From an uncultured cyanobacterium (lineage in GTDB: Bacteria > Cyanobacteriota > Cyanobacteriia > Cyanobacteriales > CAWUOF01), in NCBI GenBank assembly GCA_963744145.1, contig CAVUSO010000001.1, positions 1,678,831-1,742,830 of the forward strand: DNA of 64,000 bases, read 5' to 3'. Position 1 is the stretch's first letter; every line of letters begins with the position of its first letter. Position numbers and translations under genes: made by a program. Positions 11,013-11,532 of this stretch are shown in pieces. The notes beneath the pieces are model-generated. The model did no database searches. It saw only the letters and a program-made list of their open reading frames with translations, and was not told where the DNA came from.

Positions 11013-11532
11013 ATGTTAGATGCATTCGCCAAGGTGGTTTCTCAATCCGATGCCCGGGGTGAGTTTCTCAGCAACGCTCAATTCGATGCTCTGAGCGAAC
11101 TGGTTAAAGCAGGCAACAAACGGTTAGATGTAGTTAACCGTATCACCAGCAGTGCTTCCACCATCGTCGCCAACGCTGCTCGTGCTTTGTTTGCTGATCA
11201 GCCTCAACTAATTGCTCCTGGTGGAAATGCTTACACCAACCGTCGCATGGCTGCTTGCTTACGCGACATGGAAATCATCCTTCGCTATGTAACCTACGCC
11301 ATCATTGCTGGTGATTCCAGTGTTCTGGATGATCGTTGCTTGAATGAACCTACGCGAAACCTACCAAGCCCTAGGTGTACCTGGTGCTTCCGTTGCTGCA
11401 GGTGTACACAAGATGAAAGATGCCGCGATCGCAATTGCTAACGATCCTGCAGGTATCGCTCCTGGTGATTGCAGCGCTTTGATTTCTGAAACAGCTAGCT
11501 ACTTTGATCGTGCTGCTTCTGCTGTTTCCTAA
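11013..11532 (+). CDS. cpcB: C-phycocyanin beta subunit, reading frame interrupted by a 1-nt insertion near 11343-11351
   Basis: ORF 11013-11441 gives [20 protein letters not shown]...DDRCLNE then goes out of frame; ORF 11344-11532 ([15 protein letters not shown]...[20 protein letters not shown]) is the genuine CpcB C-terminus. Confidence 0.9.

Follow-up and report, generated by a model that had tools for sequence, protein, structure and literature searches.

A frameshift in the phycocyanin gene cpcB of a deposited cyanobacterial genome, probably a consensus error of the assembly

The gene for the beta subunit of phycocyanin, cpcB, is interrupted in the window, i.e. in the whole 64-kb stretch of DNA that was analyzed here, and this raised the question of whether the organism carries a broken gene or whether the break was introduced on the way from its DNA to the sequence. 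A sequence-only reading of the window had named a real lesion and an assembly or inserted artefact as the candidates. The window ORF at positions 11013-11441 encodes 142 amino acids, which follow CpcB up to ...DDRCLN and run out of frame after Asn111 (AAT, 11343-11345). In the +1 frame, a TGA (11341-11343) is followed by ATG AAC CTA CGC and the remaining codons up to ...DRAASAVS (11344-11532, 62 aa), as the sequence-only reading had described it, and the 142-aa and the 62-aa ORFs share 98 nt. The same reading had placed a net shift of +1 at 11343-11351, and this was borne out: the 142-aa product matched Pfam family PF00502 at profile positions 1-106 of 155 only. The cpcB product as deposited is thus without Cys153 and without the C-terminal third of the globin-like fold. 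The translation of the 3' part, read in its own frame, was 100% identical to the intact CpcB (P0001).

The window was compared with Logan contigs of the public read sets ERR11571142 and SRR27973230, hereafter called read-derived contigs. The exact CpcA of the window was encoded by Logan contigs of ERR11571142 (14,273 bp) and of SRR27973230 (1,170 bp). Contig ERR11571142_1299273 was 100% identical to the window over 13.1 kb, noncoding DNA included, and contig SRR27973230_979092 over 1.17 kb, in each case except for the cpcB site. Both Logan contigs had GGCC at this site and an uninterrupted cpcB, and the 5' part of the gene (11013..11345) was identical to the read-derived contig sequence. The read-derived contigs read AAT GGC CTA CGC GAA, matching the sequence AAT GGN CTN CGC GAA that had been predicted for orthologs. 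Compared with them, the window had G replaced by AA at 11347-11348, by which GGC CTA turned into GAAC CTA with a net gain of one nucleotide; in other words, the window reads AATG-AA-CCTACG and the contigs read AATG-G-CCTACG, the intact site being GGCC (G GCC TA). The earlier description as a single-nucleotide insertion was therefore correct in its net effect of +1, but the change itself is a G-to-AA replacement and not the plain insertion of one base. That the site is not a homopolymer was confirmed. The sequence one base shorter, with its continuous 172-aa CpcB, which the earlier reading had envisaged for raw reads, was seen in contigs built from the two read sets; these independent sets agreed at the cpcB site, where the reading frame and an invariant glycine were restored.

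The comparison was extended to seven contigs of ERR11571142 (loci L003 and L084-L090, of which L003 and L088 overlap and belong to a single contig), which covered 49,728 nt of the window. Six sites differed, four of them involving indels (Table 1). The background identity was otherwise 99.99%, and the density amounted to about 1 difference per 8 kb. To judge from this near-identity alone, the assembly and the read sets would stem from the same strain, and it is on this ground that ERR11571142 is linked to the deposited assembly. Differences that are mostly indels and mostly gene-breaking, set on a background of 99.99% identity, make up the pattern of consensus errors and not that of strain divergence or decay. 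The read-derived contigs were also imperfect, a base being missing from short runs at 17092 and 17512. Moreover, 11 of 14 read-derived contig ends touched homopolymer runs of at least 3 bases, compared with a background of 35% (P ~0.001), suggesting that the reads carry homopolymer-length errors.

Table 1. Coordinates in the window of the cpc operon and of the six differences from the read-derived contigs
Feature	Position	Strand	Remarks
Shine-Dalgarno-like AAGGAG	10998..11003	+	9 nt 5' of the cpcB ATG; read from sequence
cpcB 5' part, codons 1-111 (Met1-Asn111), frame 0	11013..11345	+	holds Asn72 and the Cys82 bilin site
cpcB lesion	11346..11349	+	window GAAC; GGC (Gly112) in read-derived contigs
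cpcB 3' part, Leu113-Ser172 and TAA, in +1 frame	11350..11532	+	holds the Cys153 bilin site
Premature stop of frameshifted cpcB	11439..11441	+	end of the 142-aa product P0135
cpcA, phycocyanin alpha, 162 aa, intact	11665..12153	+	PF00502, 1.2e-51
cpcC, rod linker, 288 aa, intact	12320..13186	+	PBS_linker_poly and CpcD domains
cpcD, small rod-cap linker, 75 aa, intact	13322..13549	+	CpcD domain, 7e-24
cpcE-like bilin lyase subunit, 281 aa, intact	13586..14431	+	HEAT_PBS repeats
cpcF-like bilin lyase subunit, 219 aa, intact	14428..15087	+	HEAT_2/HEAT_PBS
Difference 1	11347-8		contig GGCC, window GAACC; cpcB broken in window
Difference 2	17092 (L084 1280)		window CC, contig C; ABC ATPase of 268 aa (P0131) intact in window, split in contig
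Difference 3	17512 (L084 1699)		window A4, contig A3; intergenic
Difference 4	25620		contig GGCC, window GGTC; intergenic
Difference 5	42396		one transversion; missense, 488-aa DUF6851 / VCPO-like / PAP2 protein (P0129 vs P0128)
Difference 6	40712-40716		contig ACCGTTA, window GATCA (gene-strand orientation); MFS gene split in window

The repaired protein, as encoded by the read-derived contigs, has 172 amino acids and matched PF00502 at profile positions 1-154 of 155 (1.5e-54). Against chain B of PDB entry 1i7y, the beta subunit of C-phycocyanin, an E value of 2.8e-94 was obtained over residues 1-171; the 17 residues across the lesion site were identical in the two proteins, and Asn72, Cys82, and Cys153 were all present. 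The best 34 PDB matches were phycocyanin beta chains (33 C-phycocyanins or unspecified, one R-phycocyanin), and the beta chain of phycoerythrocyanin scored 240 bits as compared with 316 bits for the top PDB match. The closest CpcB homologues carry the name 'phycocyanin subunit beta' in their sources; the nearest named relative was CpcB of Egbenema bharatensis (88% identity), and the closest sequences in GTDB representatives (r232) showed 87-89% identity. By these sequence comparisons, the repaired protein qualifies as phycocyanin beta and not as the beta subunit of phycoerythrocyanin or phycoerythrin. It shares length class, bilin cysteines, and operon order with C-phycocyanin beta (1i7y_B, PF00502), whereas the gene as deposited departs from it by the frame broken after Asn111. 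The locus is an ordinary cpcB-cpcA-cpcC-cpcD-cpcE-cpcF operon. It is also the sole cpc operon of the window, as had been noted before, since no other phycobiliprotein gene pair was found there apart from the cpcA downstream. No second cpcB on the 7,634,710-bp deposited contig appeared among the best 120 CpcB homologues (at least 83% identity).

From GTDB representative genomes, 80 cpcB loci were retrieved; each of them was uninterrupted and had glycine at residue 112, encoded by GGT in 49 cases, GGC in 28, GGA in two, and GGG in one. A pattern of the cpcB site that allowed 1-3 bases at the lesion matched the window, but gave 0 matches in GTDB representative genomes and 0 matches in JGI metagenomes, which places the source species outside both collections.

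Breaks of the same sort affected other genes of the window. The gene of an MFS transporter (39824-41039, minus strand) was split into parts of 114 and 279 aa (P0134 and P0133), which are on record from NCBI and ENA only, and was intact in read-derived contig L089, where it encodes 405 aa (P0130, Logan only). A single frameshift divided a pmbA/tldD-type metallopeptidase gene (53691-55057, minus strand) into 363 and 135 aa; the Pfam domain PmbA_TldD_3rd is divided between the two, one piece matching profile positions 1-99 and the other 96-219. The pieces join at a run of five G (C5 on the plus strand, 54080-54084), and one extra G at the join would give back ...RRWGARAGLPSTGNG... and likewise ...DRRWGARAGLPSTGNG... 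The read-derived contigs L085 and L090 end at 54080 and 54048, respectively, leaving a gap of exactly 31 nt, and the stop of a contig at this run suggests branching of the assembly graph at homopolymers. Finally, an IscB-like gene (34271-35555, ~428 aa, minus strand, with HNH domain) was split into 61 and 268 aa by one shift near 35375-35420, the 268-aa fragment being on record from the NCBI/ENA contig only. Directly upstream of iscB, a HEARO / IscB omega-RNA (Rfam RF02033, 131 bits) was located at 35562-35763 on the minus strand.

Single-site breaks were thus counted in four genes (cpcB, MFS, pmbA/tldD, and iscB) among about 60, a frequency that fits consensus error better than evolution. The window resembles cases of frameshift pseudogenes in long-read-only assemblies in that several conserved genes have single-site frameshifts, one of them at a G5 homopolymer, and in that the sites covered by read-derived contigs (cpcB and MFS) were intact there. 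It is unlike them in that the cpcB site is not a homopolymer and the MFS lesion is the replacement of a 7-nt by a 5-nt block.

Because the break stands in the assembly and the gene is intact in read-derived contigs of the same strain, a consensus error is almost certain. We concluded, with a probability of about 0.85, that an error of base calling or consensus in cpcB became fixed in the deposited 7.63-Mb assembly and that the frameshift is not a lesion in the DNA of the organism. The true sequence is almost certainly AAT GGC CTA (Asn111-Gly112-Leu113) in a normal 172-aa CpcB, and the truncation is attributed to the assembly and not to the organism. Between the candidates initially named, the intact read-derived contigs and the other breaks favored the assembly error; an artefact inserted later was ruled out, as the deposited assembly itself has the break.

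The kind of error was approached through the motif at the site. Two of the six differences, those in cpcB and at 25620, fell into GGCC. Read on the complementary strand, cpcB shows GG[C->TT]C; the change at 25620 is GG[C->T]C and lies on the other strand from the cpcB lesion, and in both cases it is the first C of the motif that is altered. This C is the target of M.Ssp6803II, which in Synechocystis methylates ~90% of the GGCC sites (GGm4CC); DmtB of Anabaena 7120 likewise produces GGm4CC, and the motif has been called widespread in cyanobacteria (PMC6105098, PMC6560206). Base modifications give rise to strand-specific miscalls in nanopore sequencing, mainly purine for purine or pyrimidine for pyrimidine; these concern a subset of the motif sites, and some of them reach the assembly (PMC11610573, PMC11610603). 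Two differences at the first C of GGCC, a base methylated in model cyanobacteria, suggest an error linked to methylation. In such a course of events, the assembly would probably go back to noisy long reads that short-read polishing had not effectively corrected, the cpcB error would have arisen at a GGCC, a motif that in model cyanobacteria bears N4-methylation on its first cytosine, and the methylated base would have led to a strand-specific nanopore miscall that survived into the consensus. Within the artefact explanation, our analysis would give a methylation-linked long-read consensus error about even odds. The cpcB error would have in common with nanopore methylation errors the short palindromic motif, the pyrimidine-to-pyrimidine change on one strand, and the restriction to a minority of sites ('ambiguous positions'). 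It differs from them in that the literature describes mainly substitutions, whereas at the cpcB site one base was read as two, with a frameshift as the result.

A generic long-read consensus error, to which methylation contributed nothing and which met GGCC by chance, would likewise be an artefact, and we regard it as a possible though not the favored origin. The differences at 17092 and 17512 and the pmbA/tldD join at 54080-54084 are at short homopolymers and not at GGCC; the complex block at 40712-40716 and the transversion at 42396 are not at GGCC either; and 28 of the 30 GGCC sites in the compared regions were read correctly. These 30 sites make up 120 of the 49,728 nt compared (0.24%) and yet received two of the six differences. 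Given the first such hit, one or more of the remaining five differences would fall into GGCC with a probability of 0.012, and the unconditional chance of at least two of six is 9e-5. It also speaks against a generic error that both changes alter the motif base methylated by M.Ssp6803II and DmtB and that both are pyrimidine-to-pyrimidine on that strand, as in methylation-induced nanopore errors. The MFS block and the substitution at 42396 are neither at GGCC nor simple changes of the transition type, so that methylation cannot explain every error. A single motif behind all discrepancies was rejected, the MFS block replacement and 42396 lying outside GGCC. The window as a whole has 37 GGCC sites, compared with 63-98 expected.

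The alternative to any such artefact is a spontaneous G-to-AA change in the sequenced clone, which would be a phycocyanin-deficient mutant or would rely on a second cpcBA copy; the Logan read sets would then represent other subcultures or samples of that strain. The frameshift does stand in the deposited assembly, and no paper was found that names ERR11571142 or SRR27973230, whose relation to the assembly is undocumented. Cyanobacterial mutants lacking phycocyanin are viable in culture. Against a real lesion, contigs of two read sets of the otherwise identical strain had GGC and an open frame of cpcB. Neither secondary decay nor loss of a partner was detected in the 13.1 kb around the site: apart from the single site, cpcB was free of decay, and cpcA and the linker and lyase genes cpcC, cpcD, cpcE, and cpcF were intact. 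Further single-site breaks affected conserved genes of the assembly, one of which (MFS) was intact in a read-derived contig, and about 1 difference per 8 kb, mostly gene-breaking indels, is unlike the divergence of substrains. In addition, a G-to-AA deletion-insertion is unusual as a spontaneous mutation. A real lesion is thus unlikely. Slightly more improbable still is its fuller version, in which the G-to-AA change would have arisen at a methylated GGm4CC and marked a phycocyanin-null (or heteroplasmic, polyploid-masked) variant of a poorly sampled filamentous-type cyanobacterium, the other breaks then reflecting an unusually high recent rate of gene inactivation in the lineage.

The public records were also consulted with respect to a change planted or inserted into the window while the public sequence is intact. 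The 142-aa product (P0135) had exact matches only in NCBI and ENA, from the 7,634,710-bp contig, and the intact 172-aa CpcB (P0001) only in Logan. CpcA, CpcC, and a neighboring 524-aa protein had exact matches in NCBI, ENA, and Logan. The MFS fragments, the 488-aa variant, and the 363-aa PmbA fragment were likewise on record from the deposited contig. Since P0135 is on record from the NCBI/ENA contig, the break belongs to the public assembly, and a change planted during preparation of the window was ruled out. Only the odd G-to-AA form would speak for it; intact CpcB is not on record from the deposited contig, from which the other peculiarities of the window are on record too, and the probability of a planted change is negligible.

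A programmed +1 ribosomal frameshift or a functional two-piece CpcB is no more probable: the 3' part does open with an ATG (11344) directly after the in-frame TGA, but the arrangement is not conserved within the strain, whose read-derived contigs have one continuous gene, it is shared by 0 of 80 relatives, a known +1 shift motif was not seen at TTG AAT GAA CCT, slippage could not bring back Gly112, and the pieces of a two-piece protein would come from overlapping ORFs. A programmed frameshift was rejected on account of the continuous gene in the same-strain contigs and in all 80 relatives.

Assembly artefacts of this kind are known, and the cpcB 'feature' is one of them. Since the phycocyanin operon of the organism is almost certainly normal, the frameshift is without biological weight; it matters for data quality. 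Consensus errors appear to occur in the 7.63-Mb public genome about once in 8-10 kb; in the 64-kb window, four genes are falsely split, and truncated products such as the 142-aa 'CpcB' are already present in protein databases. Pigment type, pseudogene load, or gene loss inferred from this assembly would mislead. The apparent concentration of errors at GGCC provides a checkable handle for re-polishing cyanobacterial long-read assemblies.

Some further observations were made in the window. The palindrome CGATCG occurred 105 times and GATC 375 times in 64 kb, a typical abundance for HIP1-type palindromes of cyanobacteria; a GATC site is also created by the window version of the MFS lesion (40712-40716). 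An endonuclease III-like (HhH-GPD) ORF at 29692-30192 on the minus strand ends within the domain (profile positions 2-82 of 108, ...GITVDTHVKRLS*), and no continuation was visible downstream in any frame; either the gene is truly truncated or the assembly has a larger problem here. Two genes of putative endonucleases of the Uma2 family were located at 15337-15912 and 30955-31764. A cluster on the minus strand (38821-45736) encodes a 3-dehydroquinate-synthase-like protein (393 aa), the VCPO/PAP2-like protein of 488 aa, a ureidoglycolate-lyase-like protein, the MFS transporter, a xylose-isomerase-like TIM-barrel protein, and a nucleotidyltransferase (391 aa). It may be a cluster for a natural product derived from a sugar or cyclitol.
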